64,000 nucleotides of DNA from a bacterium. Its GTDB lineage: Bacteria > Patescibacteriota > Minisyncoccia > Phycocordibacterales > UBA9973. Of this stretch, positions 24,817-60,952 are shown piece after piece. The stretch's first letter is position 1, and each line of letters opens with the position of its first letter. The notes beneath the pieces were generated by a model. It had not been told where the DNA came from and did not search any database. It was given only the letters and a program-made list of their open reading frames with translations. A program made the position numbers and the translations under genes. The stretch covers positions 244,795 through 308,794 of the forward strand of contig JBBCGN010000001.1 of the NCBI GenBank assembly GCA_037200905.1, read 5' to 3'.

Positions 24817-25065
24817 GTAAAAAATGAAGAGTATGCTCTCTCGAGAGGCAATTATCTCAGCCGTAGGAGAGATACGAATCTATACAATCTTATAGAAACG
24901 TTTTCTAAACGCGTCTCGGGCGCAATAACCTCGCACGACTTGGCTGCAATGTCTGGTCATGAAACTAATCACGCCAGACGTCATAAGGGTATTCTAACAC
25001 TTTCCCGTCTTCCAAACTAACGGCTTTGGGTCTATATATAATATAAGCCCTTTACAGCATAACGA

Positions 25066-25083
25066 TATAATCAAATATTTGAT
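25066..25083 (+). promoter_or_regulatory. -10 box overlapping a perfect 14-bp palindrome (candidate operator)
   Basis: TATAAT at 25066-25071. ATCAAATATTTGAT at 25070-25083 is its own reverse complement and ends 12 nt upstream of the ATG at 25096. Confidence 0.45.
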
Positions 25084-25095
25084 ACAATGTGATAC

Positions 25096-25623
25096 ATGAA
25101 ATTAGGAAGCGATGCAAAGGAACGGCTCAAGCAAATCGTCAGAAACGCGGTAGCGCTCGACCCTATGATTTCCCTTCGAGACCTGCAGGCAGTACTTCTC
25201 CAGAAAGGCATCAAGATCGGCAACCTCAATTCGCTGGCTAGGATCAGGAAAGAACTGACCGAAGATGCGATAGAGGAAATGGACCGGCCACAAGTGCTCA
25301 AGCGGTATGCGGATATGGAGGAACGGATGCGGGTGCTCCGAACGGAGCTATTCAAGATCATCTACCCTGACGGCAAGAGCGGTATGTATCCGAGCTACAG
25401 CGAACAGATCTCTGCGATGAAGATATTGATGGAAAGCGACATCAAGCTCTTCCGAGCCGGACTTGATATGGGTATCTACCGCAAGGACGTGGCTAAAGGA
25501 AAGAAGTATACGAAAGAGGAAGAGTTGGCTATGCGAAATAGGCCATTGAATCCTGAGCACAGAGAAAGTATGTTAAAGGCGTTCAAGAACTTTGGATTGA
25601 TTCCGAAGGATGCGGAGATATAA
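25096..25623 (+). CDS. Hypothetical protein, possible HTH partner/antitoxin of the downstream AbiEii-type gene
   Basis: 175-aa intact ORF. Its stop is 4 nt before the next start. The N-terminal ..ISLRDLQAVLLQKGIKIGNLNSLARIRKEL.. looks HTH-like. I see no resemblance to the AbiEi families. Confidence 0.35.
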   Translation: MKLGSDAKERLKQIVRNAVALDPMISLRDLQAVLLQKGIKIGNLNSLARIRKELTEDAIEEMDRPQVLKRYADMEERMRVLRTELFKIIYPDGKSGMYPSYSEQISAMKILMESDIKLFRAGLDMGIYRKDVAKGKKYTKEEELAMRNRPLNPEHRESMLKAFKNFGLIPKDAEI

Positions 25624-25627
25624 ATAT

Positions 25628-27049
25628 ATGATTTTAAAAGACGAGATTGATCAAAAATCAAAAGAGCAACAAATAACAACCGCTAACGTGCAGCGGGATT
25701 ATCTTTTTGGTTGGCTGTTAAATTATATTTTCACTCAGAGCGAATTGAAGGACTCACTTTTCCTTAAGGGCGGAAACGCACTGAGAAAAGCCTATTTTAT
25801 AAAAACTCGTTTTTCAACCGATCTGGATTTCGGTACTCCAAACGATATTGACCAAGAATTTTTGAAACAAGAGATTGAAAAAGCGTGTCAGTTCGTAAGC
25901 GAGAAAGCTGGTATCGCTTTTGTCCTTGAAAGGAACGACGTAAGGGAAAAGTTCAATTGGAACGAACCGCGCTGGAAAGTTTTTGAGGTAAAAATTTATT
26001 TTAAAGATTTCTATGGAAACTCTGATCACATCACCCTCAAAATCTCTCTCGATGTAACCAGATTTGATAAAACATATCTTGATATACAGGAACGCACGCT
26101 TCTGCATCCCTACTCAGATGTAGCCGAGGTGGCATGCCAAATAAAATGCATGCAACTGGAAGAAGTTTTGGCGACAAAGTTAAAATGCTTGCTACAACGC
26201 GACCATGCGCCAGACCTTTTTGATTTTATATACAGTATCTATTTGAATACAGACATACCGATCAATAAGGCAGACATTCGAAGAGTTTTCCTTCAGCGAA
26301 CAATTTTTGAACGCAGTCCTCTCGTCGCAAAGAATATTCTTCTCAAATTACCATTCGAATACATGAAGGCGGTATGGCTAAAAACGATTATCTGTACACA
26401 AGATATTCTCTTTGAGTTTGATGATGCCTTTGCAAAATTCACTTCTGAAATTGAGGCCTTGTTTGCGGAGGACACAGAGAATCCGTGGCATGACCGCTTT
26501 TTCTTTGAAGCGGACGTACGAAATAAAATTATGAAGGCCGGAAAGGATCAAACTCTTTTGCGTATCGTTTACCAAGGATCGGAAAGACTTGTTGAACCCT
26601 ATTCTTTGAAGTTTCAAGAGAAGAGTGACGGTGCTACAAAAGAGTACCTGTATGTTTGGAATAGAAACGGTGGAAGTAGTCCCAAGCCTGGAATACGAAT
26701 GTTTGTTCCTGAGAATCTGACATCTATAGAAAATACCGAAGAAAAATATGAGCCTCAGTACGAGATAGAATTATGCCGTGCAGGAGAATACCCTGAAGAC
26801 AGATATCTATACGATGTAAAAAAGAAGCGAGAGAAAGAACATAACAAACTGTATAAAGTAAAAGCGCCTCGACAATCTCGACCGACCAGAACGAGAGTGT
26901 CTTCTTTTGGCCCTACTTACGTTTACAAGTGCGGTAACTGCGGAAAACTATCATATCGCAAAACCATGGACGGAACCTTAAAGCCACACAAAAGCAAGAA
27001 TGGTTATTTGTGTTACGGATATGGAATCTACCAGACCACAAAATTTTAG
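25628..27049 (+). CDS. AbiEii/AbiGii-type nucleotidyltransferase (DUF1814) fused to a WYL-like domain and a C-terminal zinc ribbon
   Basis: VQRDYLFGWLLNYIF..LFLKGGNALRKAYF..RFSTDLDF is the DUF1814 signature. LLRIVYQGSERLVEPYSLKF..EYLYVWN..IRMFVPENLTSIE fits the WYL pattern. YKCGNCGK..HKSKNGYLCYGYG is CxxC..H..C. Confidence 0.75.
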   Translation: MILKDEIDQKSKEQQITTANVQRDYLFGWLLNYIFTQSELKDSLFLKGGNALRKAYFIKTRFSTDLDFGTPNDIDQEFLKQEIEKACQFVSEKAGIAFVLERNDVREKFNWNEPRWKVFEVKIYFKDFYGNSDHITLKISLDVTRFDKTYLDIQERTLLHPYSDVAEVACQIKCMQLEEVLATKLKCLLQRDHAPDLFDFIYSIYLNTDIPINKADIRRVFLQRTIFERSPLVAKNILLKLPFEYMKAVWLKTIICTQDILFEFDDAFAKFTSEIEALFAEDTENPWHDRFFFEADVRNKIMKAGKDQTLLRIVYQGSERLVEPYSLKFQEKSDGATKEYLYVWNRNGGSSPKPGIRMFVPENLTSIENTEEKYEPQYEIELCRAGEYPEDRYLYDVKKKREKEHNKLYKVKAPRQSRPTRTRVSSFGPTYVYKCGNCGKLSYRKTMDGTLKPHKSKNGYLCYGYGIYQTTKF

Positions 27050-27057
27050 ACTCCATT

Positions 27058-27130
27058 CGACCGTTTATAGCTTAACTTCCTTCTTTAAAATTGTGTAGTT
27101 GACTTGTTAGCTATATTGCTCCGTAAATCT
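27058..27130. repeat. Left copy of a ~72-bp direct repeat flanking the ABC/TrmB cassette
   Basis: cgaccgtttatagCTTAACTTCCTTCTTTAAAaTTGTGTAGTTGACTTgttagctatattGCTCCGTAaaTCTC, compared with 30477..30548. The 35-bp core has one mismatch. Confidence 0.85.
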
Positions 27131-27803
27131 CTTTACGCAATTGATTAAATTCCTCGGTAAATTTAATTTCTGGATTTCGTGGTCTTGGAAACGGAACGAT
27201 GAATTCTTTTGTAAAACCCGTCGGATGAAGAACCAATACTCGGTCAGCTAAAAATAGTGCTTCCTCAATATTGTGAGTAACAAAAATGACTGTCTTTTTG
27301 TGCGTGGTCCACACATCCAACAACCACTTCTGCATTTTATCTCTGGTATACGCGTCAAGCGCTCCGTATGGTTCGTCCATAAGAAGAACATCTGTGTTGT
27401 GAGCAAGTGAACGCGCAATAGCAACTCGCTGAACTTGTCCCCCAGATAGCTCGTCAGGGTACGCGTCCGCTTTGTCTTCCAGTTCTGCAAGCTTGAGGTG
27501 TTCATTTACCATTGCACAATTGTCTTTTGTATCACCTTTCAATCCGAAAGCTATATTTTCGGAAACTGTCAGCCATGGGAAGGCGGCATAATTTTGGAAA
27601 ACCATTCCAATGTTTCCAGACAAAGAGACCTCTCCTTGATACGGAATGAAATTCGCAAGAGCATGAAGCAAGCTACTTTTACCACTTCCAGATTTACCGA
27701 CAATCGCTACAAATTCTCCTTTGCTCACTTCGAAGGAAACATTCTCAAGTGCAGAGTGGTTCTTGTAACTTACATTTAGATTTTTGACAGTTATCTGGTT
27801 CAT
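27111..27803 (-). CDS. ABC transporter ATP-binding protein (nitrate/sulfonate/taurine NitT-type)
   Basis: GKSGSGKSSLL (Walker A), LSGGQVQRVAIARSL (signature), VLLMDEPYGALD (Walker B). Confidence 0.85.
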   Translation of the reverse strand: MNQITVKNLNVSYKNHSALENVSFEVSKGEFVAIVGKSGSGKSSLLHALANFIPYQGEVSLSGNIGMVFQNYAAFPWLTVSENIAFGLKGDTKDNCAMVNEHLKLAELEDKADAYPDELSGGQVQRVAIARSLAHNTDVLLMDEPYGALDAYTRDKMQKWLLDVWTTHKKTVIFVTHNIEEALFLADRVLVLHPTGFTKEFIVPFPRPRNPEIKFTEEFNQLRKEIYGAI

Positions 27804-28555
27804 TTTTGTGAAAGAGTTAGCCATGGAAAGATTCGGCGAGTAGCCAACACAAAGAGTTGATCGGTAACAGCGCCGAGCGTCCCTAGAACAACTAATGCCG
27901 CTATCATTTCATCAATCCGGTACGAAAGAGATGATATTGAGATTCGATATCCAATACCGCTTGAGGCTCCTGACAGTTCAGACACGAAGACCATTACAAA
28001 CCCGATTGCGATAGCTGTTCGAATACCGGAAATAATGAAAGGAAGACTTGCAGGAAAAATTACTTCCCGAAACATCTTGAAACGAGACAAAGCAAAAAGT
28101 CTTGCGCTCCACAAGAACGTCTGCGGTATTTGTTGGGCGCCGATATATGCACCAATCCATACTGGGAAAAAGACAGCGAATGCTATGGAAAATATCTTTG
28201 CGCCATCATCAATACCAAACCAAACAATAATGAGTGGGATAATGGCTACAGGAGGCAACGGCCTAAGTATCTGAATGATAGGGTTTATTGCCTTTGCTAT
28301 GGACTTTATACGGCCTGTAACTAAACCGGTACAAATACCGATAACTGAACCGAGAGTCAGCCCGACTACAAGTCTCCAAAGACTGTCTCTGAAATCATAA
28401 AAGACAGTACCGGATATAATCATTTCCCAAAGAGCTATGGCAACTTTTGATGGTGGCGGAAATAAAGCAGGATTAACAAAACCACTACGAGATACTAATT
28501 CCCACAGTATACATACTGAAATAATTGGAAGAATAAACCATAGGAATTTTTTCAT
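27800..28555 (-). CDS. ABC transporter permease (NitT/TauT family)
   Basis: 251 aa, six TM segments, BPD_transp_1-like ..FREVIFPASLPFIISGIRTAIAIGF.. Confidence 0.8.
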   Translation of the reverse strand: MKKFLWFILPIISVCILWELVSRSGFVNPALFPPPSKVAIALWEMIISGTVFYDFRDSLWRLVVGLTLGSVIGICTGLVTGRIKSIAKAINPIIQILRPLPPVAIIPLIIVWFGIDDGAKIFSIAFAVFFPVWIGAYIGAQQIPQTFLWSARLFALSRFKMFREVIFPASLPFIISGIRTAIAIGFVMVFVSELSGASSGIGYRISISSLSYRIDEMIAALVVLGTLGAVTDQLFVLATRRIFPWLTLSQK

Positions 28556-28571
28556 GGGTCATGAGATTGCT

Positions 28572-29591
28572 TTAAATACCAACTGCTCCCGAAGAAATCT
28601 TTTTGAGCGGAGCACTGTAGATAACATCCTGGAAATTTGGAATTACAGTATCTTTAGTTACTTTACCGCTATCTTTAGCCCACTGTGCTTCTCGATTCAA
28701 GTATTCGAGCAATTGAGGAGTAAGAGCGATGCGGAAATCAAAACTACCCCAGATTCCATCGACTGTTTCCTTGTCGAGTTTTGTGTATTTCATCACTACA
28801 GCTTTTGCTTCCTCTGGATTGTTCTTGGTAAACTTTTCTGCTTCAACAAGTCCTTTCAATAGTTTTTCAAGTGTTGCAGGATTTTCTTTAACAGACTCTT
28901 TTGCTTCTATGACATAAAGTTCTGAATAAATACTCGCGTCAGTGAAAGTGATGGATTTATCACCAAGCTGCTTTTCAGCTATGTACGCGAATGGATCAAA
29001 TACTGCAATAGCATCTACACTTCCACTTATTAGAGCAGCCGGCATATCCTTTGGCGCCTGACTCACGATTTCAACTTGGTCTTTGGAAATACCGAGCTTG
29101 TTCAAAAATTCATAGGTAAAGAATTCCGGCCCACCACCAATAGACGTAGCTATCTTTCGCTTCTTTGCTTTGAAGTATTGATCAGAAGTCTCGAGTCCTG
29201 CTTCTTTGCGCGCAACAACTCGTACTTCATTCTGAGTCTTGCCAACTACTTGCGCAGGCACAACAAATTTATTTCCCTGAAGGGAGGCAAGAGTTACTGG
29301 AACATCACCAGAAATTGAAAAATCCAAAGATCCTCCGAGAAATGCTTCGAGGGCAAACTTACCAGCAGTAAATTCCTTGAGCTCAACATTAAGTCCCTCT
29401 TTTTCAAAAAAGCCTTTGTCTTTTGCCACCATGACCAAGGCCATAGCAGGAGAGGTTTGAATTCCCACTGTTACATGTTCCAGTTCTTTGGGCTGCTTTA
29501 ATCTGGCATGCCAAGCAAATAACCCACCTATTAAGGCAAGGATGATAATGGTCCACAAAATATTTTTTGATGTTTTTGACATATACACCAC
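28572..29591 (-). CDS. ABC transporter substrate-binding protein (NMT1/SsuA-like; probable start 29582)
   Basis: N-terminal anchor, then ..VTVGIQTSPAMALVMVAKDKGFFEKEGLNVELKEFTAGKFALEAFLGGSLDF.. Confidence 0.75.
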   Translation of the reverse strand: MVYMSKTSKNILWTIIILALIGGLFAWHARLKQPKELEHVTVGIQTSPAMALVMVAKDKGFFEKEGLNVELKEFTAGKFALEAFLGGSLDFSISGDVPVTLASLQGNKFVVPAQVVGKTQNEVRVVARKEAGLETSDQYFKAKKRKIATSIGGGPEFFTYEFLNKLGISKDQVEIVSQAPKDMPAALISGSVDAIAVFDPFAYIAEKQLGDKSITFTDASIYSELYVIEAKESVKENPATLEKLLKGLVEAEKFTKNNPEEAKAVVMKYTKLDKETVDGIWGSFDFRIALTPQLLEYLNREAQWAKDSGKVTKDTVIPNFQDVIYSAPLKKISSGAVGI

Positions 29592-29670
29592 AATCTACAG
29601 TTTTGGTAAAGTATTGTAAACACTGTTGTACATTATTGACAACATAAACCGACTTTGATAGCATGAGGAT

Positions 29671-30489
29671 ATGATTGAAGACATACTCAAAAAGCTTGAT
29701 TTGCGCGACGAGGAAATAAAGGCCTTCCTTTTCCTTCTGGAGAACGGACCTCAAACGGCTGGCAATCTAGCTAAAAAGACCGGCCTATCCCGCCCTTCCC
29801 TATATGGGTTCATGCGCAAACTCCAAAAAATGGAGCTAGTTATTGAATCTCAGAAAAACGGCATCAAGACTTTCACAGCAAGTTCAAAAGAAAAAGTTTC
29901 TAGCCTTTTCGATGAGAAAATACAAGAACTAGAGCAAGGCAAGCTCTCAATCGAAAAAGTCTACAGCGAAATCCTCAAAACCGGAGCGACTATCAGTCCG
30001 AAGTTTCAATTATTTGAAGGCAAAGATGGAATGAAGCTCGTACTCAAAGACATGCTTATGTATCGAGACATTGAGACGAAATCATATTGGCCTATAAAAG
30101 CCATGATTGAAATTCTCTCTGAAGATTTTTTCAAAACATTAAATAAGGAGCGTATCCAGCGAAAACTTACGACTCGAGCAATCTGGCCCCAGAACCAAGT
30201 CGTGGATATAAAAAAATACCCTTATCTTGGGACTGGAGAGAAATTTCTCCGAGAAATCCGTGTAGCACCGAAAGATATTGGTTTCTCTATGGGTTACTGG
30301 ATATACGGAAATAAAGTTGCTTTTATTTCTTCCAAGAAAGAAGCTTTCGGATTTATTATCGAGAGTAAGGAGCTCGTTGAAATGCTCTCTTCTCAGTTTG
30401 AAGTCATGTGGAAACTTTCACGTCCCATAAAAGCAAAAGAGAGTGATTCCGCAGAATTTTTAAAAGAACTAAAAAACGACCGTTCGTAA
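29671..30489 (+). CDS. TrmB family transcriptional regulator
   Basis: LDLRDEEIKAFLFLLENGPQTAGNLAKKTGLSRPSLYGFMRKLQKMELV is a TrmB-type wHTH. Transcribed divergently from the ABC operon. Confidence 0.75.
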   Translation: MIEDILKKLDLRDEEIKAFLFLLENGPQTAGNLAKKTGLSRPSLYGFMRKLQKMELVIESQKNGIKTFTASSKEKVSSLFDEKIQELEQGKLSIEKVYSEILKTGATISPKFQLFEGKDGMKLVLKDMLMYRDIETKSYWPIKAMIEILSEDFFKTLNKERIQRKLTTRAIWPQNQVVDIKKYPYLGTGEKFLREIRVAPKDIGFSMGYWIYGNKVAFISSKKEAFGFIIESKELVEMLSSQFEVMWKLSRPIKAKESDSAEFLKELKNDRS

Positions 30490-30548
30490 CTTAACTTCCT
30501 TCTTTAAATTTGTGTAGTTGACTTATATCTTATTCTGCTCCGTATCTC
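30477..30548. repeat. Right copy of the ~72-bp direct repeat
   Basis: cgaccgttcgtaaCTTAACTTCCTTCTTTAAAtTTGTGTAGTTGACTTatatcttattctGCTCCGTATCTC. It overlaps the TrmB stop codon and precedes the recombinase gene. Confidence 0.85.
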
Positions 30549-30592
30549 GTTATTCACTAGACTTCGCACGTTGTTCCGGTATGTTCGTGTGT

Positions 30593-31924
30593 ATGGAACA
30601 AATAGCACCATATGGAGCTCAAATAGGCATACCTCCAGTATTGCAGACAGAGCCAGTCAGATACTGTTTATATGCCCGTAAATCGAGCGAGGCAGAAGAA
30701 AAGCAAGCACTCTCAATTGATTCTCAAGTAAAGGAGATGCTCGATATCGCTCAAAAAGATAATCTGAACGTTACCGATATGTACCGCGAATCTCACTCGG
30801 CAAAAGATTGCGGACAGAGACCAGTTTTCAATAAATTACTTCTTGATATCCGTGAGGGTAAATTCGATGGCGTCCTCGTTTGGCATCCAGACCGCCTCTC
30901 TCGAAACGCTGGTGACCTCGGCGCTATAGTCGATTTGCTTGACCAGAAAAAATTGATTGAGATACGGACATATAGCCAGCGCTTTACCAATAATCCAAAT
31001 GAGAAATTCCTTTTGATGATTCTCGGATCACAAGCAAAACTCGAAAATGACAACAAGAGCATCAATGTGAAGCGTGGATTACGAACTCGAGTTGAAAGTG
31101 GTCTATGGCCCAGCGTTGCTCCTACCGGATATCTTAATCACCCTGATCGAACAATGAAATGCCATGTGATTGTTGATCCATTACGATCGCATGTAATACG
31201 ACTCATTTTTGAGAAAGCGGCCTATGAGAAAATGAGTATCCGAAAACTATTCCGCTGGCTCAAAGAGGACGTCCGATTTACTACGAGACATGGAAAACCA
31301 CTCAGTCTAAGCAATATCCAGCTCATTCTTCGTAATAATTTCTATATGGGACTGATCGAATATCCACGAGGGTCAAGCAAGTGGTACCCTGGCAAACACG
31401 AACGCATAATTAGTGAAGAACTTTTCAAAAAGGTTCAGGAAAAATTGGATGCAAGTAAAAATGGTGAACAACGCACTAAAAAAGAGTTCGCGTTTACCCG
31501 TCTTATGAAATGCGGTATGTGTAAATCCGGAGTGACTGCTGAAGAAAAGTTCAAGAACTTAATTGATGGAAGTGTTGCAAAGTACATTTATTATGGCTGT
31601 ACAAGGTTCAATGATAAAAATTGCAAGAATACTTACCTACGCGAAGATAATCTAATTGAGCAATTGCTCGAGATTGTAGATCGAATTGATATCAATAACG
31701 TAGGCATCAAAAGTAAACTTGAAAAAGAAATCGAACGTTTTGGAGAATTTAGAAGCAAGGTTTTGGGAACCACTGAACAAGAGAAAATCGTACAGACAAA
31801 AATTGATGTACGAAACTATATGAAATACCTACTCCGAGAAGGAACGATTCAAGAAAAGCGAGATTTGATGCAGTCGTTCACGAGTAAGCTCATTTTGATC
31901 AACAAAAGAGTTGTGCTCGAGTAA
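30593..31924 (+). CDS. Large serine recombinase (resolvase domain, recombinase domain, zinc ribbon)
   Basis: YCLYARKSSEAEEKQALSIDSQ (catalytic Ser region), VWHPDRLSRNAGD, ..CGMCKSGVTAEE..YYGCTRFNDKNCKN. Start taken as MEQIAPYG; an alternative start is 30581. Confidence 0.85.
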   Translation: MEQIAPYGAQIGIPPVLQTEPVRYCLYARKSSEAEEKQALSIDSQVKEMLDIAQKDNLNVTDMYRESHSAKDCGQRPVFNKLLLDIREGKFDGVLVWHPDRLSRNAGDLGAIVDLLDQKKLIEIRTYSQRFTNNPNEKFLLMILGSQAKLENDNKSINVKRGLRTRVESGLWPSVAPTGYLNHPDRTMKCHVIVDPLRSHVIRLIFEKAAYEKMSIRKLFRWLKEDVRFTTRHGKPLSLSNIQLILRNNFYMGLIEYPRGSSKWYPGKHERIISEELFKKVQEKLDASKNGEQRTKKEFAFTRLMKCGMCKSGVTAEEKFKNLIDGSVAKYIYYGCTRFNDKNCKNTYLREDNLIEQLLEIVDRIDINNVGIKSKLEKEIERFGEFRSKVLGTTEQEKIVQTKIDVRNYMKYLLREGTIQEKRDLMQSFTSKLILINKRVVLE

Positions 31925-31928
31925 AAAA

Positions 31929-32768
31929 CTATTCTGATTTTACTTCTCCAGATTCAAGCTTAGTAACGATTTCATTCATAGTGTAATGCACAAATTGTTT
32001 TCCAAGCTCAGTTAATTCATATTGTTTATCATCATCAAAAGCAGAGGTAGCATAGCGCACACTACCCGCAGGCTTCGATGTTTTTTTGCTGGGACGTATT
32101 ATTACATTTCCTTGATAATCCCTTTCTTTATGCTGTCTTATTACATGCCCTGTACTTAAATCATGTACGAGTAACTTAAATAAATCTGCTTCGGCCGAAT
32201 CTTCTCGAACAGCTTCACCGTGTATTTGATCCCAAATTTCTTGCCTTGTATAACCTGGATTATTAAATACAACTCTTACAACAGCAAAGTGAGCTTCTGA
32301 ATATATGTCAATCCATGAGACAAACATGCGAACTACATCATCTGAGCAAATTTTAGTAGAAGCCGAATTTGCAAGTAAATTTCTTATCAACTTTCTCTTC
32401 TCTTCGCTTTCTGCCGCAGACCAATCTCGGAAACACTTTTTCACAATCTTTAAATACTCAGGACTTTGCAACCTTTCTCTAATTTTTTCATCGGTTTGAT
32501 CTACACGTGCCATAACTTCCATGATAGTTATGGCAATCTCTTTTATTTCATCCTCTTGTAGTTTAAGCCATGTACCAAATATGTTATTCAAATTTTCTTG
32601 CTCTTTTTCAGACCATGATCCTCCTATGCCACCAATGGCTCCCCCAATAACCGGAATAGCACTTAAACAAGCAAGTGCAAAGCGAGCAGCTTTTGGTCCT
32701 GAACCTGATTCTAAAGCTTCATCAAGTTGTTTTCTTAAGTCACTTTTTTCTTCTTTGTCATCTTTCAT
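31929..32768 (-). CDS. Hypothetical protein with an N-terminal glycine-zipper hydrophobic segment
   Basis: ..AARFALACLSAIPVIGGAIGGIGGSW.. followed by a helical region. It lies 16 nt downstream of the HEPN-like gene on the same strand. Confidence 0.4.
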   Translation of the reverse strand: MKDDKEEKSDLRKQLDEALESGSGPKAARFALACLSAIPVIGGAIGGIGGSWSEKEQENLNNIFGTWLKLQEDEIKEIAITIMEVMARVDQTDEKIRERLQSPEYLKIVKKCFRDWSAAESEEKRKLIRNLLANSASTKICSDDVVRMFVSWIDIYSEAHFAVVRVVFNNPGYTRQEIWDQIHGEAVREDSAEADLFKLLVHDLSTGHVIRQHKERDYQGNVIIRPSKKTSKPAGSVRYATSAFDDDKQYELTELGKQFVHYTMNEIVTKLESGEVKSE

Positions 32769-32784
32769 ATTAATTTACTTTAAA

Positions 32785-33576
32785 CTACTTAGAGCTTTTA
32801 TCTGCTAATTTAGCAAGTAAACTTACGAAAGCAATGAACTCTAGAGCCATTTCTGGATCATCTTTTATAATTTTATGTGCACGAGGATTTCTTAAGCCAG
32901 CGACTGCACCCGAGAACATCATCATGAATCCTTTTTGCTCATCAATATCTGAAGTATCTGCAAGAGTATTAAATTTCAATACAGGACTCTTGGAACTAAA
33001 TACAAACTCCATAAGTGCTATTCCGTCTTTATCATCAATCCCACTATTCATTCTCACAAGAGCATTTAATGCTTTAACTGCATCTTCAATCGCGTTGGAA
33101 TAATGCCCATCTTTAAAAAGATTTCCAACTGCTCTTTCAATTGCAGGATGAAGCTCAAGACCCTCATATGCTTTAAGTGTTTTCCCAGATGAAGTTTGCC
33201 CAGCATCCCCAAGTTCTTCTAAAAAGATTGCTTTTATACCCTCAAGTTGTTGCCTAGATTCTGTTACTGATTCACTGACGCTTTGTTTAATTTCTCCAAG
33301 AGTTATATCTGGCCACCAACTACCTGGATTAAGGCTAGTAACACCATGGCGGTATCTTTCATACTCAACCGTATTAGTTCCAAAAATAGAAGCCAGAGTA
33401 GCCTCAAGGGTTTTTTCTAATGTAAGAACTGTGGGATCGCCATATTTAGTGATCGAATTTATATCTAGATTTTCTAGATCTTTGATTCTTCTGTCGATCT
33501 TAGGAATAGCTGCTTGCATCTGTTGAAATGACAAATTAGCTTCTACAGGTTCTGATTTCTTAGGTTTTTGGGACAT
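32785..33576 (-). CDS. TIGR02391 (Hypoth_Ymh)-like protein with an Rx4H HEPN-type motif
   Basis: ELHPAIERAVGNLFKDGHYSNAIEDAVKALNALVR..GFMMMFSGAVAGLRNPRAHK.. The N-terminal ~130 aa look like coiled coil. Confidence 0.65.
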   Translation of the reverse strand: MSQKPKKSEPVEANLSFQQMQAAIPKIDRRIKDLENLDINSITKYGDPTVLTLEKTLEATLASIFGTNTVEYERYRHGVTSLNPGSWWPDITLGEIKQSVSESVTESRQQLEGIKAIFLEELGDAGQTSSGKTLKAYEGLELHPAIERAVGNLFKDGHYSNAIEDAVKALNALVRMNSGIDDKDGIALMEFVFSSKSPVLKFNTLADTSDIDEQKGFMMMFSGAVAGLRNPRAHKIIKDDPEMALEFIAFVSLLAKLADKSSK

Positions 33577-33652
33577 ATATAAATTATACTCTTAATCTTA
33601 ATTTTTAAACGAACAGACCACTTTAGGTCACTGGGTACGAAAAACTAAACTG

Positions 33653-33723
33653 CTGGGAGACTAGGACTCGAACCTAGATAAACAGGACCAGAACCTGTTG
33701 TCCTACCATTAGACGATCTCCCA
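33653..33723 (-). tRNA. tRNA-Gln (anticodon CTG)
   Basis: TGGGAGA TC GTCT AATGGTA GGAC A ACAGG TTCTGGT CCTGT TTAT CTAGG TTCGAGT CCTAG TCTCCCA G. Cloverleaf drawn by hand. No encoded CCA. Confidence 0.85.
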
Positions 33724-33726
33724 ATG

Positions 33727-33963
33727 CTACATCTTCGATCTTAACTCCTTCTTTCCTTTTGCAGTCTTGTAGTACCTTTCTTTACGGAATGCCTCATATT
33801 TATCATCATACGGTTCGAAATATAAAATCTCAAATGGAACACGAGATTTGGTAGATTTTACTTTGCCCGAATTGTGATAATTCAAACGATTTTCTAAAGA
33901 TTCAGTACAACCAATATATTGGTTATCGTCCTTTTTGCTTTTTAAGACATACACGTAATGCAT
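33727..33963 (-). CDS. Small GIY-YIG nuclease family protein
   Basis: MHYVYVLKSKKDDNQYIGCTESLENRLNYHNSGK..R.PFEILYFE..KYEAFRKERYYK. Its stop codon is 3 nt from tRNA-Gln position 1. Confidence 0.8.
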   Translation of the reverse strand: MHYVYVLKSKKDDNQYIGCTESLENRLNYHNSGKVKSTKSRVPFEILYFEPYDDKYEAFRKERYYKTAKGKKELRSKM

Positions 33964-33964
33964 A

Positions 33965-34032
33965 CTGTTGTCCTACATTAGCCTCGCCCGTAGGCTGGAG
34001 CCTTCGGGCTACGGCCGAGGGACGATCTCCCA
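33965..34032 (-). pseudogene. Decayed copy of the tRNA-Gln 5' half, interrupted by a 39-nt GC-rich hairpin
   Basis: Minus strand reads TGGGAGATCGTC[CCTCGGCCGTAGCCCGAAGGCTCCAGCCTACGGGCGAGG]CTAATGTAGGACAACAG, against the intact TGGGAGATCGTCTAATGGTAGGACAACAGG. Confidence 0.8.
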
Positions 34033-34116
34033 ATACCCGTATACATTACTAGAAAACCGGACTTTTTTCAACTTTTGCCATTTTTGACTTTCGGGAATTA
34101 AAGGTATAATAAGCCA

Positions 34117-39197: not shown

Positions 39198-39198
39198 G

Positions 39199-39271
39199 AG
39201 CCGAAGGTGAGGATTGAACTCACGACCCCGTCTTTACGAAAGACGTGCTCTACCAACTGAGCTACTTCGGC
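39199..39271 (-). tRNA. tRNA-Thr (anticodon CGT)
   Basis: GCCGAAG TA GCTC AGTTGGTA GAGC A CGTCT TTCGTAA AGACG GGGTC GTGAG TTCAATC CTCAC CTTCGGC T. Confidence 0.85.
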
Positions 39272-39288
39272 AGCTTGGTTCCCTTTGG

Positions 39289-39361
39289 AGCCGTTGATCG
39301 GGATTGAACCGATGACCTCGTCATTACCAATGACGTGCTCTACCAACTGAGCTACAACGGC
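39289..39361 (-). tRNA. tRNA-Thr (anticodon GGT)
   Basis: GCCGTTG TA GCTC AGTTGGTA GAGC A CGTCA TTGGTAA TGACG AGGTC ATCGG TTCAATC CCGAT CAACGGC T. Confidence 0.85.
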
Positions 39362-39418
39362 AAAACTGCATAGCGCTCATACTACTATAATTTTGCCTTA
39401 TTTTCAATTGGTGCGACC

Positions 39419-39884
39419 TTACGAGGCGCAGTTCGGAGTATTGACGAACGTCGTGCTGGCGTCGTATGTCACGTTTGACGGATCGACGAAATTCTCGCCC
39501 TGGGCATCATACGCGCCGAAACCTTCGATAAAATCATTGCCGCTCTTCTTGAATATGACCTGGCGGACGGAATCCATGCCTTCGGAGCTGAAGGAATAAT
39601 TGCCGAGCAGGATGCCGTCGCGGTTAGGTGCCGCTGAACGTGCCATGAGAACTGTCTTTCTCGAAATTGTCATAGGCGAGAGTGCCGGAGAACATATCGA
39701 GATCCTGCGAATTCACGTGCAGGGTATAGACGTCCTGAGCCAAATGGGCAACATAACAGCCGGTAATGGATTCCGGAGCAGGCGGTAGGACAGCCTGTTC
39801 GTCTGCCTTCTTATGATAAAAGGAAAACCACGCGATAAGGATAATAGCGATGATAACCAACAGCCAGATTGTAAATTTCTTCAT
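39419..39884 (-). pseudogene. Hypothetical secreted protein, paralog of 7920..8435 (one frame break near 39640)
   Basis: ORF 39624..39884 (MKKFTIWLLVIIAIILIAW..) joins ORF 39419..39673. Confidence 0.45.
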
Positions 39885-39914
39885 ATATAGGTAGACGTTT
39901 CAGGAGAGCTTTTA

Positions 39915-41108
39915 TTACGAAGGCTCTTTCCCGGGGAAAATCCTTTTAATGTGGTAGGCCATGCGCACCTTGTATTTGCGCCAGACGAACGGCAGCAGGT
40001 CGCGCTTGCGTTCGAGCCCCCAAGCCTGTGCGAGATAATCCACAAAGCGGTATGCGTCGCGAGAAGACTTCCCTTTTGCTTCGAATTGCCAATAGGTGCG
40101 CCACAGCCTCGGCACCCCGCCCCAGGGGGCATGGACCGTATTGGTCTTTTTATAATATGCTCTGACTTTCTGCGATTCGAGCGGCAAAGCGAGGATTGCC
40201 GCTTTTGCTGGTTCCGGCAAGGAGATGAAATTACTATTAAGCAGATAGCGAAATGCCATATATATTTCCACCTCAAAACCGTATTTCTTCGTCTTTTCCA
40301 GAAACAAGTCCCAGTCGATCGGCAGCGTACGGATGAGATATACTGCATCGGTGACGAAATGCAATGTCTTTACGGGAGCGCCTTCGGCGCCGTGGACAAT
40401 GACATGAATGAGCATGTCTTCGGCACGCAATGTGCGATACTGTTTTTCTTTATACGCGAATGCCCGAGCATGCCCCCATACGTCGCGAGCAAGAACGGTT
40501 TCCCGCTCATCAATGCCGCCTTTGGCTTCGAAGATCCGCCAGTGCATGTCGATTTCCATGCGCTGCTCATTCATGAACGTAATTTCTTTGACGATGCGCG
40601 GCAGGCTCTCGTCGGAGAAGTGGTCGAGCTTCGGAAATTGCCTGGTTTTCAGCTTCCAGCCGGCACCGAGCATGAGCGTAATGGCCCGCTTTGCGTTCTC
40701 GGGATGAACAAGCACGTCGGAATCGCCCAAGAATCGCGCACCTTCATCTTTATAGGCCTCGATCAATAGCGGTATGCCCTTGAGAAGCAGCACAGGGATG
40801 CGGTTTTCTTCGAGCAACGCGACAGTTTTTGCCATAGCGTCAAGCAGTCCCTGATTCTTCACCCAAGCCAGTTTGTACACGCCCCTGATCCTCCCCAAGA
40901 GGGGATCCTGCATGTTCAGTTTCTTGAGACGGATGGCGAGGAGCGGCAGGAGACGGAGAGTGCCATGGTCGACGGCATCGAAAGCGACAGCGTTCTTCCA
41001 CGCGTCCCACAGGAGCGGGAAATCCTTGTCGGCGCACAGCAGGAGATCGAGAAACAGCTGCTCGTCTTTGTCGGGAAAACTCTTGGGAAAAGGCAGAGGG
41101 GCTGACAT
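39915..41108 (-). CDS. Uncharacterised nucleotidyltransferase family protein (NTP_transf_5-like)
   Basis: 397 aa. ..LLLKGIPLLIEAYKDEGARFLGDSDVLVHPENA.. matches the family pattern. Last gene of the PqqD/kinase operon. Confidence 0.6.
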   Translation of the reverse strand: MSAPLPFPKSFPDKDEQLFLDLLLCADKDFPLLWDAWKNAVAFDAVDHGTLRLLPLLAIRLKKLNMQDPLLGRIRGVYKLAWVKNQGLLDAMAKTVALLEENRIPVLLLKGIPLLIEAYKDEGARFLGDSDVLVHPENAKRAITLMLGAGWKLKTRQFPKLDHFSDESLPRIVKEITFMNEQRMEIDMHWRIFEAKGGIDERETVLARDVWGHARAFAYKEKQYRTLRAEDMLIHVIVHGAEGAPVKTLHFVTDAVYLIRTLPIDWDLFLEKTKKYGFEVEIYMAFRYLLNSNFISLPEPAKAAILALPLESQKVRAYYKKTNTVHAPWGGVPRLWRTYWQFEAKGKSSRDAYRFVDYLAQAWGLERKRDLLPFVWRKYKVRMAYHIKRIFPGKEPS

Positions 41109-41113
41109 ATTAC

Positions 41114-41803
41114 TTATTTCTCTTTTTTCCTGCCGAGAGACTCCCTGACGATCTTCAGATAATCGGCGCGGGAAGCGCGTTCCGTGACACCGGTATTAGT
41201 CTCATGGATGCGGCGCATCAGGAACACTTCCGGAATGACCTCCGACACGAGGCCCGCTTCTTCGGCTTTGGCGATCCAGTCGATGAATTCCCCCACCCGC
41301 CATCTCGGATCGAACAGTCCGGCTTTCCGGAAAAACGATGCTCGCGCGAGCATCGTCCCCGCGATGCGTCCCGGCATGGGATCGGGATCGCAGTAGCGCA
41401 GCTTCTTCACTTCGTCGGAAAGCTCGGGACTCGCGAAGCACTGCAGATGGGTGAACGACAGATCGAGGGCGGGATTTGCCGCGAAGCGATCGAGCTGGGC
41501 CGCCAGCTTGCCCGGCTTCCAGACGTCGTCGGCATCGAGGAACGCGATGAAGTCTCCCCCTGCCAGGGACACCCCCTTGTTGCGCGCTTCGCCGCTGCCC
41601 GTATTCTCGGGACTGTCGATCAGCCGTATCGCGTCGCCGAACGACCTGAGCACCTCGAGTGAACCGTCTGTCGACGCGTCATTGACGCAGATGATCTCGA
41701 TATGCCGATGCATTTGCGCCAAAACGCTTTCGACGGCTTCCTTGACATATTTTTCGGCGTTGAATACCGGCATGATGACGCTTACGAGCGGTTGGTCTTG
41801 CAT
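41114..41803 (-). CDS. Glycosyltransferase family 2
   Basis: VSVIMPVFNAEKYVKEAVESVLAQ..IEIICVNDASTDGS..FLDADD. Confidence 0.8.
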   Translation of the reverse strand: MQDQPLVSVIMPVFNAEKYVKEAVESVLAQMHRHIEIICVNDASTDGSLEVLRSFGDAIRLIDSPENTGSGEARNKGVSLAGGDFIAFLDADDVWKPGKLAAQLDRFAANPALDLSFTHLQCFASPELSDEVKKLRYCDPDPMPGRIAGTMLARASFFRKAGLFDPRWRVGEFIDWIAKAEEAGLVSEVIPEVFLMRRIHETNTGVTERASRADYLKIVRESLGRKKEK

Positions 41804-41811
41804 AAATACCG

Positions 41812-42879
41812 CTATATCATAGCACTTTTCAGGAATGATTTGATGGTGTCCGGAACTGTCCGCACATCCGGGCCGAGATCGAGGAAATAGCATGGGATTT
41901 TCTCTAGAATCTCCTTGAACATGGCGATCTTGTTCGTCTCGGCGAGCGGCAGTTGGAACAGCGTGGTCGGAGCGATAGCTATCATGGCTTCCATCTTCGA
42001 AGCTCGCACGATACGCGTCTCGGTACTAGTAATGCGCGGGATGAGCACGGCCCTGAGCGGCGATGCGCGCTTCACCTGTTCGGGAAAGATATCCGAGAGG
42101 AATATGACCGCTTTCTCGCGCTCTCCGAAATCCTTGTTCCAGATTTTTTCGGCAAACTCTGGAAAGTGAGTGAGTCCTTCCCGCGTAACTATAGCTGAAT
42201 GATACAGGCTGTGCGCCATAACCTTGTCCGCTGTCTCGATCGCCACGTAATCATCGCCCAAGTAATCCATGCCGGAGAGGATCGAGGAAAGGGCAGTAGT
42301 CGATTTCCCGGAGCCGCTTTTTGCGGTCAGAAGTACCGATATTCCATCCTGTCCCACTACTGCGCCATGGATGAAATGAATGCGAGATTCGCTGAAGAAC
42401 CAGTGGAAGATAGTGCGAAATGGTGCGCCGAGCACCCAGTCCGGCAACTGCGATGCATCCTGGGTCCAAAAATATCCGACGTGTTTTTCCTTATCATAAA
42501 AATTGAGCGACTCTTCGCCGCCGACATATACTCCGAGGAAAGAATCGCCGTCTATAGCGGCATCTTTCTCGAAACTGCTGTCGTTCCACGGCGGAATGAC
42601 TTCCGTCGCGGCCCCTTTTGAATCCCATGCGTGGATAGTGAGATCAGCGTGAAATGATTCATGTGTTTCATTATGCGCGAGAGCGAGAGTAAAGATGTTG
42701 GCAACTTCCCTGCCATAGAGATGGACTGCAATTCGCTTGTCTGCGATGACGTAATGCTTCACTGTCGGAGGAGATATCCTTTTTCTCTCTTCAAGAGAAG
42801 GTACCATGATGCGCTTGAAATACTCACGCGACACCGCGAGAAAATTCTTCATGAGGATGTGTCGGGGTTTGAAACTCAT
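41812..42879 (-). CDS. HPr kinase-related (HprK-like) P-loop protein
   Basis: FIHGAVVGQDGISVLLTAKSGSGKSTTALS. Start taken at MSFKPRH (42879), 4 nt after the upstream GT2 stop. Confidence 0.65.
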   Translation of the reverse strand: MSFKPRHILMKNFLAVSREYFKRIMVPSLEERKRISPPTVKHYVIADKRIAVHLYGREVANIFTLALAHNETHESFHADLTIHAWDSKGAATEVIPPWNDSSFEKDAAIDGDSFLGVYVGGEESLNFYDKEKHVGYFWTQDASQLPDWVLGAPFRTIFHWFFSESRIHFIHGAVVGQDGISVLLTAKSGSGKSTTALSSILSGMDYLGDDYVAIETADKVMAHSLYHSAIVTREGLTHFPEFAEKIWNKDFGEREKAVIFLSDIFPEQVKRASPLRAVLIPRITSTETRIVRASKMEAMIAIAPTTLFQLPLAETNKIAMFKEILEKIPCYFLDLGPDVRTVPDTIKSFLKSAMI

Positions 42880-42883
42880 ATCG

Positions 42884-43555
42884 TTATCCTGCCTGGCCGC
42901 GGGCGCGGGCCAGCTTTTTCCTGAGAGAAGCCATCTGCCCTTGCGCGACATAGCCCCTGTCATTGGTCTGATTGTTTTCGTGCCTGCGGAACATGAACGT
43001 CACCTCGGGAATGCGCTTTTCCCTCGCGGCGCTTTCTCGGAGCCGTATGTTCCAGTCAAAGTCTTCCCCTTTACGCATCGTCTCGTCAAAAAAGCCGACC
43101 ATATTGAAGACTTCCCTCTTGTACAATGCCGCTCCCAAAAGTTCCGGATGGAAAAGCGTCTCGATCACCTCTCTCGTCCGGTCCGGCTGTATGCGGAAAA
43201 TTTCTGTCACTCCTTGCGCGTAATCGTACCCATCGTTTCCGAGATGCGGCAAAAGAAGTTTGATGTGTTCGTCCGTCCACAGATCGTCTTGATCGATAAA
43301 TGCAATGATGGAACCCTTCGCATGCTTCAAGCCGAGGTTTCTCGCGGCCGCCTGGCCCTTGTTCTCTTGCGAGAGCAAGGTGATGCGATCCCCGTAGGGC
43401 GCGAGCACAGCGAGAGATTCTTCCGGAGAACCGTCATTGACCACGATCACTTCCAGAGTCGCATACTTCTGCCTAAATATCGATTCAAGCGCGAGAGCGA
43501 TGAATCGCTCGCCTCTGTAATACGGTATGATCACTGAGATGAGCGGCGCTTCCAT
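42884..43555 (-). CDS. Glycosyltransferase family 2
   Basis: ISVIIPYYRGERFIALALESIFRQKYATLEVIVVNDGSPEES..FIDQDD. Confidence 0.8.
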   Translation of the reverse strand: MEAPLISVIIPYYRGERFIALALESIFRQKYATLEVIVVNDGSPEESLAVLAPYGDRITLLSQENKGQAAARNLGLKHAKGSIIAFIDQDDLWTDEHIKLLLPHLGNDGYDYAQGVTEIFRIQPDRTREVIETLFHPELLGAALYKREVFNMVGFFDETMRKGEDFDWNIRLRESAAREKRIPEVTFMFRRHENNQTNDRGYVAQGQMASLRKKLARARGQAG

Positions 43556-43558
43556 GAG

Positions 43559-43994
43559 TTATTTATTTTCCTTCAGCTTCGGCCAGCCCGCGATGTCCAC
43601 GTCGTGGATCGGATCGGCAAGGAGCATCTCCTGCATGTCGGAATACTTGGTGATGCCCGGCACGATAAAAGATTTTTTCTCCGCCTGAGTTTCCGGTACG
43701 AGCAGTGCCGGAGCTGTTGGGGATTCCGAGATAAGATTATCAGCTTGGAGCGATGCGATAAGATCTGTTACAGATTTTTCTATCGTTTCGATAGACGCAT
43801 CGTAGCGAGCAGCCAGAGCTTGCGTGATTTGCCCGAGAGAATGCCCGGCTTTGAGATATTCCCAGACCAGGCTGCCTGTCTCGTTCATGCTGTAATACGT
43901 GCCGTTCTGTAGATCGATGATGATGGTCTCGCCGTCGAGAGTCTCGCTGATGGCGCGGGAATGCGTTTATCGCATACGTTTTATCTGAAGACAT
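43559..43994 (-). pseudogene. PqqD-family (RRE-type) protein (one frame break near 43945)
   Basis: MSSDKTYAINAFP, then in another frame AISETLDGETIIIDLQNGTYYSMNETGSLVWEYLKAGHSLGQITQALAARY..SVTDLIASLQADNLI..LLADPIHDVDIAGWP. Confidence 0.7.
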
Positions 43995-44105
43995 ACCGCT
44001 ATATTATACAAAAAATACCGAAAAGCAAAGGCACGCAGCAATATGACTAGGATTGTTACCCATCAGATGTGGAGAATACATTTCCACAGATCTCGTCGGC
44101 GCGAA

Positions 44106-44785: not shown

Positions 44786-44941
44786 ATCCAGATTATACCA
44801 CTTTTCTCTCTGCGCGACTTAGTGGACGATGTTAGAACTGCTATTAGGAATTATAATAAGCATATTTATATCCCTGATTTAACATCTTTTATTTTATCTT
44901 GATTCTTTCTAAATTCAACACCCTGCATACCATTATCACTA

Positions 44942-45253: not shown

Positions 45254-45255
45254 GC

Positions 45256-45615: not shown

Positions 45616-45618
45616 ATG

Positions 45619-45692
45619 CGCGACCGAGCGGATTTGAACCGCCAACCTCCCGCGTGACAGGCGGGTGCTCTAACCAGTTGAGCTACGATCGC
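45619..45692 (-). tRNA. tRNA-Asp (anticodon GTC)
   Basis: GCGATCG TA GCTC AACTGGTTA GAGC A CCCGC CTGTCAC GCGGG AGGTT GGCGG TTCAAAT CCGCT CGGTCGC G. Confidence 0.85.
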
Positions 45693-60943: not shown

Positions 60944-60952
60944 TTAAGCTTG

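Follow-up and report, generated by a model that had tools for sequence, protein, structure and literature searches.

Integration into the genes of transfer RNAs (tRNAs) is the classic behaviour of tyrosine integrases. According to the authors of Islander, no integrase of the serine family was known to use tRNA genes as targets (Hudson, Lau & Williams, 2015, PMC4383910), and integrative elements with serine recombinases have been described with targets inside protein-coding genes (PMC5704250). The nearest precedent for the locus described here is the ssrA islands of Dehalococcoides, which are moved by the CcrB-like serine recombinase DsiB (McMurdie et al., 2011, PMC3146451). Free-standing GIY-YIG homing endonuclease genes are also known, such as that of T4 SegB in a tRNA gene cluster (PMC2330249). 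As for the Patescibacteria, a genomic-island study counts islands in a text without the words 'integrase', 'recombinase' or 'tRNA' (PMC12455944). In this study, a stretch of 64 000 nucleotides (nt) from a member of that phylum (contig JBBCGN010000001.1; 'the window' hereafter) was analyzed with respect to an AT-rich island that lies against the 3' end of a tRNA-Gln(CTG) gene and encodes a large serine recombinase (LSR).

The segment 24943-33651 of the window (8709 bp) is very probably an integrated mobile island, with the LSR as its integrase and its chromosomal attachment (att) site, attB, at the 3' end of tRNA-Gln(CTG). A cargo island moved by an LSR is a known arrangement; the target at a tRNA 3' terminus, the common core of 4-5 nt and the displacement of the CCA together with the trailer are unusual. 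An incomplete search of the literature turned up no account of serine integrases that specialise on the 3' termini of tRNAs, nor one of the GIY-YIG/tRNA cassette that adjoins the island, so that prior description of either is possible. An earlier reading from the letters alone (the sequence-only reading) had suggested an integrative element that uses a serine recombinase and needs no long identity between its att sites. This was borne out by ends defined to within a few bases, by the short core, and by an empty site at one related locus (L059) and an occupied one at another (L105); L numbers denote the loci compared.

Junctions, attachment sites and the empty site

The features on which the argument depends are as follows.

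24909-24942, minus strand: displaced host sequence (B' side of attR), comprising the original CCA and 32-nt 3' trailer of tRNA-Gln
24943-24947, no strand assigned: common core at the left junction, GCTGC on the plus strand and GCAGC in tRNA orientation
24943-25624, plus strand: left-end module, a 153-nt upstream region and the gene for a 175-amino-acid (aa) protein, p175 (coding sequence 25096-25623)
30593-31924, plus strand: LSR, 443 aa, with the Pfam domains Resolvase, Recombinase and Zn_ribbon_recom
33616-33651, minus strand: element-borne junction block (P' side of attL), directly 3' of the tRNA
33652-33723, minus strand: tRNA-Gln(CTG), the probable integration target (ARAGORN; Rfam tRNA, 60.7 bits; 3'-end comparison)

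The tRNA-Gln(CTG) gene faces the island with its 3' end. Its body is intact, and element sequence stands in place of the encoded CCA (...CCCAGC / AGT, where a spaced slash, here and below, marks the junction). In tRNA orientation the junction block reads AGTTTAGTTTTTCGTACCCAGTGACCTAAAGTGGTC, and the displaced terminus at the far end of the island (24909-24942) reads CCA-AGTCGTGCGAGGTTATTGCGCCCGAGACGCGT. These 34 nt match both L059 and the far-left junction of the L105 island at about 90%. A comparison with relatives to find empty sites, as the sequence-only reading had recommended, yielded L059, an unoccupied site in a distant relative, in which the trailer runs straight on from a complete tRNA-Gln(CTG) ending in ...CCCGCAG-CCA. 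In a single BLAST comparison, L059 5363-5436 corresponds to window 33725-33652 and L059 5432-5470 to window 24947-24909; the two matches are contiguous in L059, with an overlap of 5 nt (GCAGC), while the corresponding parts of the window lie 8.7 kb apart. Judged from these alignments, the arrangement has the signature of an empty site. L105 is an independent occupied case with the same displaced trailer: its LSR island of 12.6 kb has the trailer, preceded by GCAGC-CA, at the far-left end and is bordered on the other side by a tRNA-Gln without CCA, which reads ...CCGGCAGC / AGTCTAG. Similar trailers follow tRNA-Gln-CCA at the unoccupied loci L041 and L012.

The left end is fixed by a second comparison. 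The window and the islands of L163-L170 share 91.5% nucleotide identity from exactly 24943 to 25624, one base past the p175 stop codon, and the similarity resumes at the upstream region of the LSR gene. The element starts with GCTGC(A/G)ATGTCTGGTCATG in the window and in L163-L170, and the sequences to the left are unrelated; the element thus opens with the core at 24943-24947, which resembles the 3' terminus of the tRNA. Homologs of p175 (P0001, 94% identity; P0004, 57%; and others) are always located at the far end of LSR islands, beside unrelated host genes, in the order host, p175 (plus strand), variable cargo, LSR (plus strand) and more cargo. The cargo in L163-L170 includes a radical-SAM protein, AbiTii and a reverse transcriptase with bAvd; that in L171 and L172 consists of an HTH protein and two unknown proteins. 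Assignment of p175 to the host, which would move the boundary to about 25.6 kb on account of its GC content of 0.62 at third codon positions (GC3), was rejected, as its homologs end recombinase islands in unrelated flanks.

In tRNA orientation, attL reads ...GAGTCCTAGTCTCCCAGC / AGTTTAGTTTTTCGTACCCAGTGACC... and attR reads ...TTTCATGACCAGACATTGCAGC / CAAGTCGTGCGAGGTTATTGCGCC.... The reconstructed sites are ...GTCTCCCAGC / CAAGTCGTGCG... for attB and ...GACATTGCAGC / AGTTTAGTTTTT... for attP, the element's own site, or, in shorter form, ...GAGTCCTAGTCTCCCAGC / CAAGTCGTGCGAGG... and ...CATGACCAGACATTGCAGC / AGTTTAGTTTTTCGTACCC..., respectively. The predicted junction-spanning sequences are ...GGGTACGAAAAACTAAACTGCTGCAATGTCTGGTCATG... 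for attP and ...GGTTCGAGTCCTAGTCTCCCAGCCAAGTCGTGCGAGGTTATTGCG... for the empty attB. Identity between attL and attR is confined to 4-5 nt (CAGC/GCAGC), which is the minimal identity typical of serine-integrase att sites, and no longer repeat between the junctions was found in the window. The sequence-only reading had searched the far boundary for a duplicated tRNA 3' end and reported none. For long repeats this holds, since no such copy was found in the window with up to three mismatches or by k-mer, ungapped or gapped scans; however, the displaced GCAG-CCA with its 32-nt trailer at 24909-24947 had been missed. The palindromic motif GACCnnTnTAGGTC was also considered as a repeated core and was discarded, as it has a single good match in the window.

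The junction block, a stretch of about 36 nt directly 3' of the tRNA, is kept in occupied loci of different species and beside different tRNAs, and one variant, ... / AGTCATGTGAG, adjoins both tRNA-Gln and tRNA-Lys. Because the block travels across species and tRNAs, it is taken to be carried by the element. An Rfam scan of the region returned the tRNA only. The loss of the encoded CCA at tRNA-Gln is probably tolerable because the window contains five other tRNA genes (39198-46200; tRNA-Thr, tRNA-Asp and tRNA-Met), four of which also have no encoded CCA; the genome would have to rely on a CCA-adding enzyme and, provided that it has one, the loss should be harmless.

In the proposed mechanism, the recombinase would join attP on the element to attB on the chromosome, where attB spans the extreme 3' end of tRNA-Gln(CTG). 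Exchange would take place close to the discriminator and the initial C of the CCA, where the exact crossover dinucleotide is also provisionally placed; the core common to both partners is limited to 4-5 nt. The tRNA body would be left intact and would now be followed by the element-borne 36-nt block, with AGT... supplied in place of CA, and the original CCA and 3' trailer would be pushed 8.7 kb off to the far junction. The LSR encoded by the element presumably catalyzed the event, and the element may still be able to excise.

Several further observations concern sequences beside tRNA-Gln at other loci. At L111 the junction block occurs again as a direct copy 7.4 kb away (4823-4860 versus 12216-12255; 38 nt, one 3-nt indel), with a score of 43 against a null maximum of 28; L111 is the sole locus with such a copy, which suggests a trace of tandem accretion at the same tRNA-Gln. 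The 3' 42 nt of the tRNA-Gln gene at L011 (4633-4800) recur, almost perfectly copied, 31 nt past the end of the gene. This copy is either a classical displaced fragment of the tyrosine-integrase type or the remnant of a tiny insertion, and it indicates that other kinds of elements use the same tRNA. L096, L098 and L021 carry the motif GGCATACC(T/G)GCTGAG(C/A)GC(A/C)GTAT(T/C)CAGA about 60-130 nt 3' of tRNA-Gln, past the junction block and ahead of a terminator-like hairpin; the motif, which the window does not contain, could be a small structured RNA or a regulatory site. Finally, in the first ~90 nt inside the left end of the L105 island (628-720), a fragment resembling a tRNA T-arm and acceptor (GGCGGGTTCGAGTCTCAGTCCC) is followed by a copy of the palindromic junction-block motif (AACCCGTCTAGGTCGGG).

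The recombinase family and the mosaic element

The LSR has the domain structure of an integrase. Alternative starts lie at 30581 and 30518, and the translation contains the catalytic-serine motif YARKSS. The Pfam Resolvase domain (3e-25; residues 51-195 of the 468-aa open reading frame) aligns with the catalytic region of SprA, and it is accompanied by Recombinase (1e-15) and Zn_ribbon_recom (1e-6) domains and by a match to the structure of the A118 integrase C-terminal domain (4kis). The closest solved relatives are the SPbeta SprA, TP901-1 and A118 integrases, and a PHROG integrase family is matched at 1e-70. The best NCBIfam model is CcrB, at 148.5 bits against a cut-off of 900, with CcrC at 74 bits against 900; the protein is not a Ccr orthologue. 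No tyrosine-recombinase domain was found by Pfam in any of the ten island proteins.

Homologous LSR genes also lie downstream of the CTP synthase gene, the neighbour of the island in the window, at L003 and L004 (56-58% identical), L025 (67%), L057 (54%) and L111 (78%), none of which has the window's cargo. The LSR identity does not track that of the CTP synthase (65% for CTP synthase and 67% for LSR at L025; 82% and 58% at L003), a discrepancy that speaks for horizontal transfer into the same CTP synthase/tRNA-Gln locus. A scan of metagenomes yielded 80 further LSR loci. A tRNA gene was found downstream of the homologous LSR at 45 loci, and at every one of them it is encoded on the other strand and points with its 3' end at the 3' end of the LSR gene, from a distance of 94 nt to 7 kb (94-200 nt in some cases); about 33 of these tRNAs are tRNA-Gln (CTG or TTG), and the rest are tRNA-Ser, tRNA-Lys, tRNA-Asp and tRNA-Tyr. 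The same geometry occurs on IMG/VR contigs. The order common to the family is a left-end gene (p175), variable cargo, the recombinase, variable cargo and the tRNA. Such tRNA-targeting LSR elements are widespread in the Patescibacteria and apparently undescribed. They would form an exception to the textbook rule, as a family of serine integrases found systematically at tRNA genes.

The upstream region of the LSR gene is repeated within the element, on either side of a block of transport genes.

27058-27133, plus strand: R1, a distal 'ghost' copy of the recombinase promoter and leader (68 nt at 84% identity to R2)
27111-29591, minus strand: importer of the ATP-binding cassette (ABC) superfamily, SsuABC/TauABC (NitT/TauT) type (Pfam ABC_tran, BPD_transp_1 and NMT1_2)
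27111-27824, minus strand: ATPase of this importer
27800-28555, minus strand: permease of this importer
28572-29591, minus strand: binding protein of this importer, NMT1/SsuA family
29671-30489, plus strand: TrmB-family transcriptional regulator (Pfam TrmB, 3.7e-12)
30477-30592, plus strand: R2 and leader, the conserved upstream region of the recombinase, with a -35-like TTGACT

The direct repeat (27058-27125 and 30477-30544; 68 nt, 84%) extends with gaps to about 76 nt (27133 and 30552), and its copies bracket the ABC importer/TrmB block. R2 is conserved upstream of the LSR genes of L083, L086, L100, L111, L116, L163 and L171. R1, which is truncated, passes into the ABC ATPase gene at its 3' end, and repeat-derived sequence encodes the last codons of that gene. 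The possibility that the repeat is a remnant of the ABC ATPase 3' end was discarded, as the same sequence stands upstream of recombinases at loci without ABC genes. Distal R copies just after the left-end gene are also present at L086 and L111. At L163, p175 and the recombinase are separated by just one cargo block and one copy of R.

The simplest reading of this structure would be a fusion of two related elements with loss of one LSR gene, or insertion of a cargo block into R. The island would then not have arrived in one step: tandem elements accumulated at the same tRNA and one LSR was lost or, equivalently, a 3.4-kb ABC/TrmB cassette entered the recombinase promoter. Such a composite origin is a distinct possibility, to which rather less than an even chance is given. 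It would explain why R1 copies the recombinase upstream region yet leads into the ABC ATPase, and it is in line with the single R and single cargo block of the closest p175 islands (L163), the distal R copies of L086 and L111, and the second direct junction-block copy of L111, which is expected after tandem accretion. Furthermore, tandem arrays are known for the serine-recombinase ssrA islands of Dehalococcoides (PMC3146451). However, a donor element with ABC/TrmB cargo was not found, GC and GC3 are uniform over both cargo blocks, and the repeat could be a regulatory duplication instead.

The reading of 24943-33651 as an island integrated by its own LSR has to be set against several unfavourable points. 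Between the LSR gene and the ends of the element lie 1.7 kb on the tRNA side and about 5.6 kb on the left, and the gene is terminal in many relatives. The internal repeat makes the element a mosaic, part of which may have arrived separately. No copy of the junction block, direct or inverted, was found at the far end of the window's element. Dyad symmetry in the reconstructed attB and attP amounts to 5-8 of 24 positions at offsets of -3 to +3, which is the level of chance, the centre being uncertain; characterised serine-integrase sites usually have some dyad symmetry. The predicted circular attP junction was unmatched in IMG/VR, the one collection searched. The empty site comes from a distant relative (CTP-synthase identity 59% for L059), and no empty site of the same species was found, what is indexed for this genome being one assembly and one Logan contig, both in the integrated state.

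Some of these features would suit an old variable hotspot for defence genes and other cargo at tRNA-Gln, filled by unrelated events, in which the LSR is a relic or a passenger, such as an invertase or resolvase: at the same locus, relatives differ wholly in cargo, the element is a mosaic with the R1/R2 repeats, the recombinase is not at the very end and the reconstructed att sites have no dyad symmetry. Nevertheless, this explanation is very improbable. The element has precise ends, which are found again in unrelated host flanks; one insertion event would account for the displaced trailer, the empty site and the L105 replicate; the orientation is the same at all 45 tRNA-linked loci, and the junction block moves with the recombinase to other tRNAs; and Recombinase and zinc-ribbon domains are typical of integrases, not invertases.

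Left end, cargo and the adjoining GIY-YIG cassette

The remaining genes of the island are the following.

25628-27049, plus strand: AbiEii-family nucleotidyltransferase, 473 aa (Pfam AbiEii, 3e-22; PADLOC AbiEii, 6e-45)
31929-33576, minus strand: putative two-gene defence module
32785-33576, minus strand: Hypoth_Ymh/HEPN protein of this module
31929-32768, minus strand: 279-aa partner protein of this module

The gene content given in the sequence-only reading (an AbiE-like module, an ABC importer with its regulator, a large serine recombinase and a HEPN module) agrees with Pfam, PADLOC and NCBIfam. The AbiEii protein corresponds to the toxin of an AbiE system and has an unannotated C-terminal extension of about 190 aa; a cognate upstream AbiEi is absent, as no AbiEi antitoxin domain was recognised by Pfam, PADLOC or NCBIfam in the upstream p175, which elsewhere is the conserved left-end gene of islands without AbiEii. 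The ABC importer matches the NCBIfam models SsuA_fam, SsuC and SaoA-like, each under the equivalog cut-off. In the putative defence module, Hypoth_Ymh is matched at 1e-28 by Pfam and the partner matches Abi_alpha at 1.4e-4, under the cut-off; PADLOC assigns Aga_HEPN and PD-Lambda-3_B. The equivalent position in L003 holds Hypoth_Ymh and DUF4145. Across the family, the cargo comprises abortive-infection, HEPN, restriction-modification, radical-SAM, retron- or diversity-generating-retroelement-like and transporter genes.

p175 itself has no Pfam, PHROG, NCBIfam or PADLOC match. Its AlphaFold2 model is all-alpha, with a predicted local distance difference test score of 76, and Foldseek searches of the PDB and BFVD returned nothing significant (best E 0.04-1). 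Because its terminal position is conserved, p175 may be considered a candidate accessory or directionality factor, the latter being what serine integrases require for excision. The left-end genes of L111 and L105 are DUF5681-like rather than p175.

This end of the element also bears on whether the island is a degenerate prophage or phage satellite, with a phage-type serine integrase, anti-phage cargo and a p175 related to packaging (small-terminase-like). In IMG/VR, 23 viral contigs, the longest measuring 55 kb, encode relatives of the LSR (43-58% identity), and on some of them the tRNA is arranged in the same way; the best PHROG match is a phage integrase, the DUF5681-like family is seen in phages, and small terminases are among the fold matches of p175. 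These fold matches are not significant (E values as above), however, no p175 homolog was found in the viral loci, and no capsid, portal, terminase, tail, replication or lysis match was obtained for the element proteins (Pfam and, in part, PHROGs). A phage origin is thus unlikely, and an integrated cargo island remains the preferred reading.

The AT-rich stretch as a whole is longer than the element. The sequence-only reading had reported a shift in composition by eye between about 24.83 and 34.05 kb, and the computed profile confirms a discontinuity in GC content, from 0.52 to 0.40. In 1-kb windows the GC content is 0.52-0.58 up to 25 kb, 0.365-0.43 over 25-34 kb and 0.53-0.57 beyond; in 200-nt windows it falls at about 24.7-24.8 kb and rises back at about 34.05-34.1 kb. 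The element (24943-33651) has a GC content of 0.399, compared with a mean of 0.523 (standard deviation 0.014, minimum 0.49) for 150 windows of the same length elsewhere in the window. GC3 is 0.24-0.41 in the island genes and 0.59-0.90 in the flanking genes, with p175 (0.62) as the exception. The block is therefore real, although the boundaries first given, 24830 and 34050, do not stand: the left end lies at 24943 and the right end at 33651/33652. The span 24830-34050 is made up of host intergenic DNA (24817-24942), the element, the tRNA and a GIY-YIG cassette, so that the AT-rich stretch contains two unrelated things: the 8709-bp element and the cassette at 33727-34033. As the cassette is on the 5' side of the tRNA, it is outside the island and accounts for the AT-rich tail at 33.72-34.05 kb.

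With regard to the genomic background, the genomes of the nearest relatives have a GC content of about 0.31-0.36, far below the core of the window genome (~0.52-0.58). The CTP synthase beside the island was found in the scan in Patescibacteria/Candidate Phyla Radiation genomes only ('Paceibacterota', 'Nomurabacteria' and others), with the closest matches at L003 (82% identity), L004 (80%) and L005 (77%). The left-end genes p175 and L111 5000-5700 clearly exceed the remainder of their islands in GC content and differ from it in a strongly positive AT skew (~0.3), so composition alone would misplace the island boundary in this family of LSR elements. Two other AT-rich patches occur in the window. 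The first (54700-57000, GC 0.32-0.41) adjoins BacA (53825-54613) and encodes a 403-aa protein with weak similarity to IucA/IucC and FhuF and a 261-aa protein without a family match; neither a recombinase nor a tRNA adjoins it. The second is short (60400-61000, GC ~0.37), with a 174-aa open reading frame (60419-60943) that has no Pfam match.

The cassette consists of two features beside the tRNA.

33727-33963, minus strand: GIY-YIG nuclease-domain protein, 78 aa (Pfam GIY-YIG, 7e-16)
33965-34033, minus strand: incomplete copy of the 5' half of tRNA-Gln, made up of its first 13 nt and the 16 nt that follow, to about position 30

The partial copy, which the sequence-only reading overlooked, is part of the cassette and not of the island. 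It is broken in the D-loop by a 40-nt GC-rich hairpin (33981-34020) and stops one base before the GIY-YIG start codon. The copy and hairpin fold at -29.7 kcal/mol (z score -2.45), and two of the four fragment-plus-hairpin sequences tested fold significantly better than shuffled ones (z scores of -2.45 and -2.35). The Pfam match spans residues 1-71 of the 78 aa, and no further domain is evident. A use of 33965-34033 as an att repeat of the island was rejected: it is a 5' fragment on the tRNA's other side, and the same architecture occurs at island-free tRNAs. The recurrent order is a tRNA 5' fragment (26-38 nt) with a 29-40-nt GC-rich hairpin in the D-loop, a GIY-YIG open reading frame of 78-88 aa and the complete tRNA, as seen at tRNA-Thr (L009 1-407), tRNA-Gln (L021 12800-13196) and tRNA-Ser(gct) (L137 and L139), with a degenerate form at tRNA-Ala (L064 ~5000-5434). 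The unit is a separate small mobile cassette, independent of the recombinase element, and it would have duplicated the 5' half of the tRNA when it entered upstream of it. A possible role of the hairpin would be to guard against loss of the cassette, by interrupting the direct repeat, or to abolish a nuclease site in the pseudo-copy. Homologous GIY-YIG genes are also accompanied by a duplicated 5' end of a gene for a GxxGxxG Rossmann protein (MKLLVTGGAGF; L079 2500-2990) and by a duplicated 3' end of prfB (L005 7100-7640); duplication on insertion is accordingly not confined to tRNAs.

Taken together, these data may be read more broadly, in a tentative proposal whose chances come close to even without reaching it. 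The Patescibacteria would harbour an undescribed LSR lineage specialised on tRNA genes, mainly tRNA-Gln, for which the acceptor/T-arm end of the tRNA forms half of attB and strand exchange falls at the discriminator/CCA. With the tRNA left functional and no tRNA segment duplicated, its elements would be invisible to standard tRNA-island finders, and they would be a main vehicle for the exchange of defence and transport genes between such reduced genomes. The directionality or accessory factor would be p175 or the DUF5681-like protein, both conserved at the left end, with R as the preferred place at which cargo is swapped. The GIY-YIG cassette would be a second undescribed mobile unit, which invades and rebuilds the 5' part of a tRNA gene and whose hairpin protects the pseudo-copy from recombination or cleavage.

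For the Patescibacteria, the locus offers a concrete integration mechanism and precise island boundaries, together with a route of gene gain in very small genomes, by which defence and uptake functions arrive as variable cargo. As the mechanism leaves almost no repeat, repeat-based island finders would miss such elements. Genome engineering could also profit from serine integrases whose sites are short, defined and placed in a conserved tRNA terminus, and the GIY-YIG/tRNA cassette is an additional lead.

Comparison with known systems

The ssrA islands of Dehalococcoides share with the element a low-GC variable cargo, a position at the 3' end of a small essential structured-RNA gene, tandem accretion, and a conserved integration module with the LSR beside the target; in addition, the best NCBIfam model of the window's LSR is likewise CcrB. 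They differ in their target, tmRNA, with a crossover in the T-loop and a 20-bp direct repeat, whereas the window has a tRNA, the discriminator/CCA and 4-5 nt. Furthermore, the window's element has one recombinase gene and no equivalent of DsiA/CcrA and no ParB, RecF or Mom (Pfam), and its host belongs to another phylum, the Patescibacteria.

SCCmec, which is inserted by CcrAB or CcrC at the 3' end of rlmH, is also a cargo island without transfer genes, with modular, mosaic cargo, placed by an LSR at the extreme 3' end of a conserved housekeeping gene that is left functional. However, the window has a single recombinase gene, a tRNA target and a CcrB score of 148 bits against the cut-off of 900. 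The repeats of SCCmec are roughly 15 bp in length, compared with the 4-5-nt shared core of the window's element.

Similarly to the tRNA islands found by Islander, the element preserves the function of the tRNA, has its far end marked by a displaced original fragment and carries its integrase on board. In contrast to them, it has no tyrosine recombinase, and the displaced piece is made up of a few terminal tRNA bases together with the CCA and the trailer. As this piece is not a tRNA 3' half of 15-45 nt, Islander-type detection would miss the element.

The phage LSRs (SPbeta SprA, A118, TP901-1, phiC31 and Bxb1) are alike in domain architecture and in the minimal identity of their att sites, and relatives of the window's enzyme occur on viral contigs. 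Characterised phage LSRs mostly target protein-coding or intergenic sites. The window's element, unlike a phage, has no recognisable phage genes, and its directionality factor is only a candidate.

The cassette on the 5' side of the tRNA is comparable to GIY-YIG homing genes such as that of SegB, being small, AT-rich, patchy in distribution, evidently mobile and located among or next to tRNA genes. It differs from them in that no domain other than the catalytic one is evident in its protein, that it duplicates the 5' part of its target and that, in the tRNA cases, the pseudo-copy carries a GC-rich hairpin in the D-loop.

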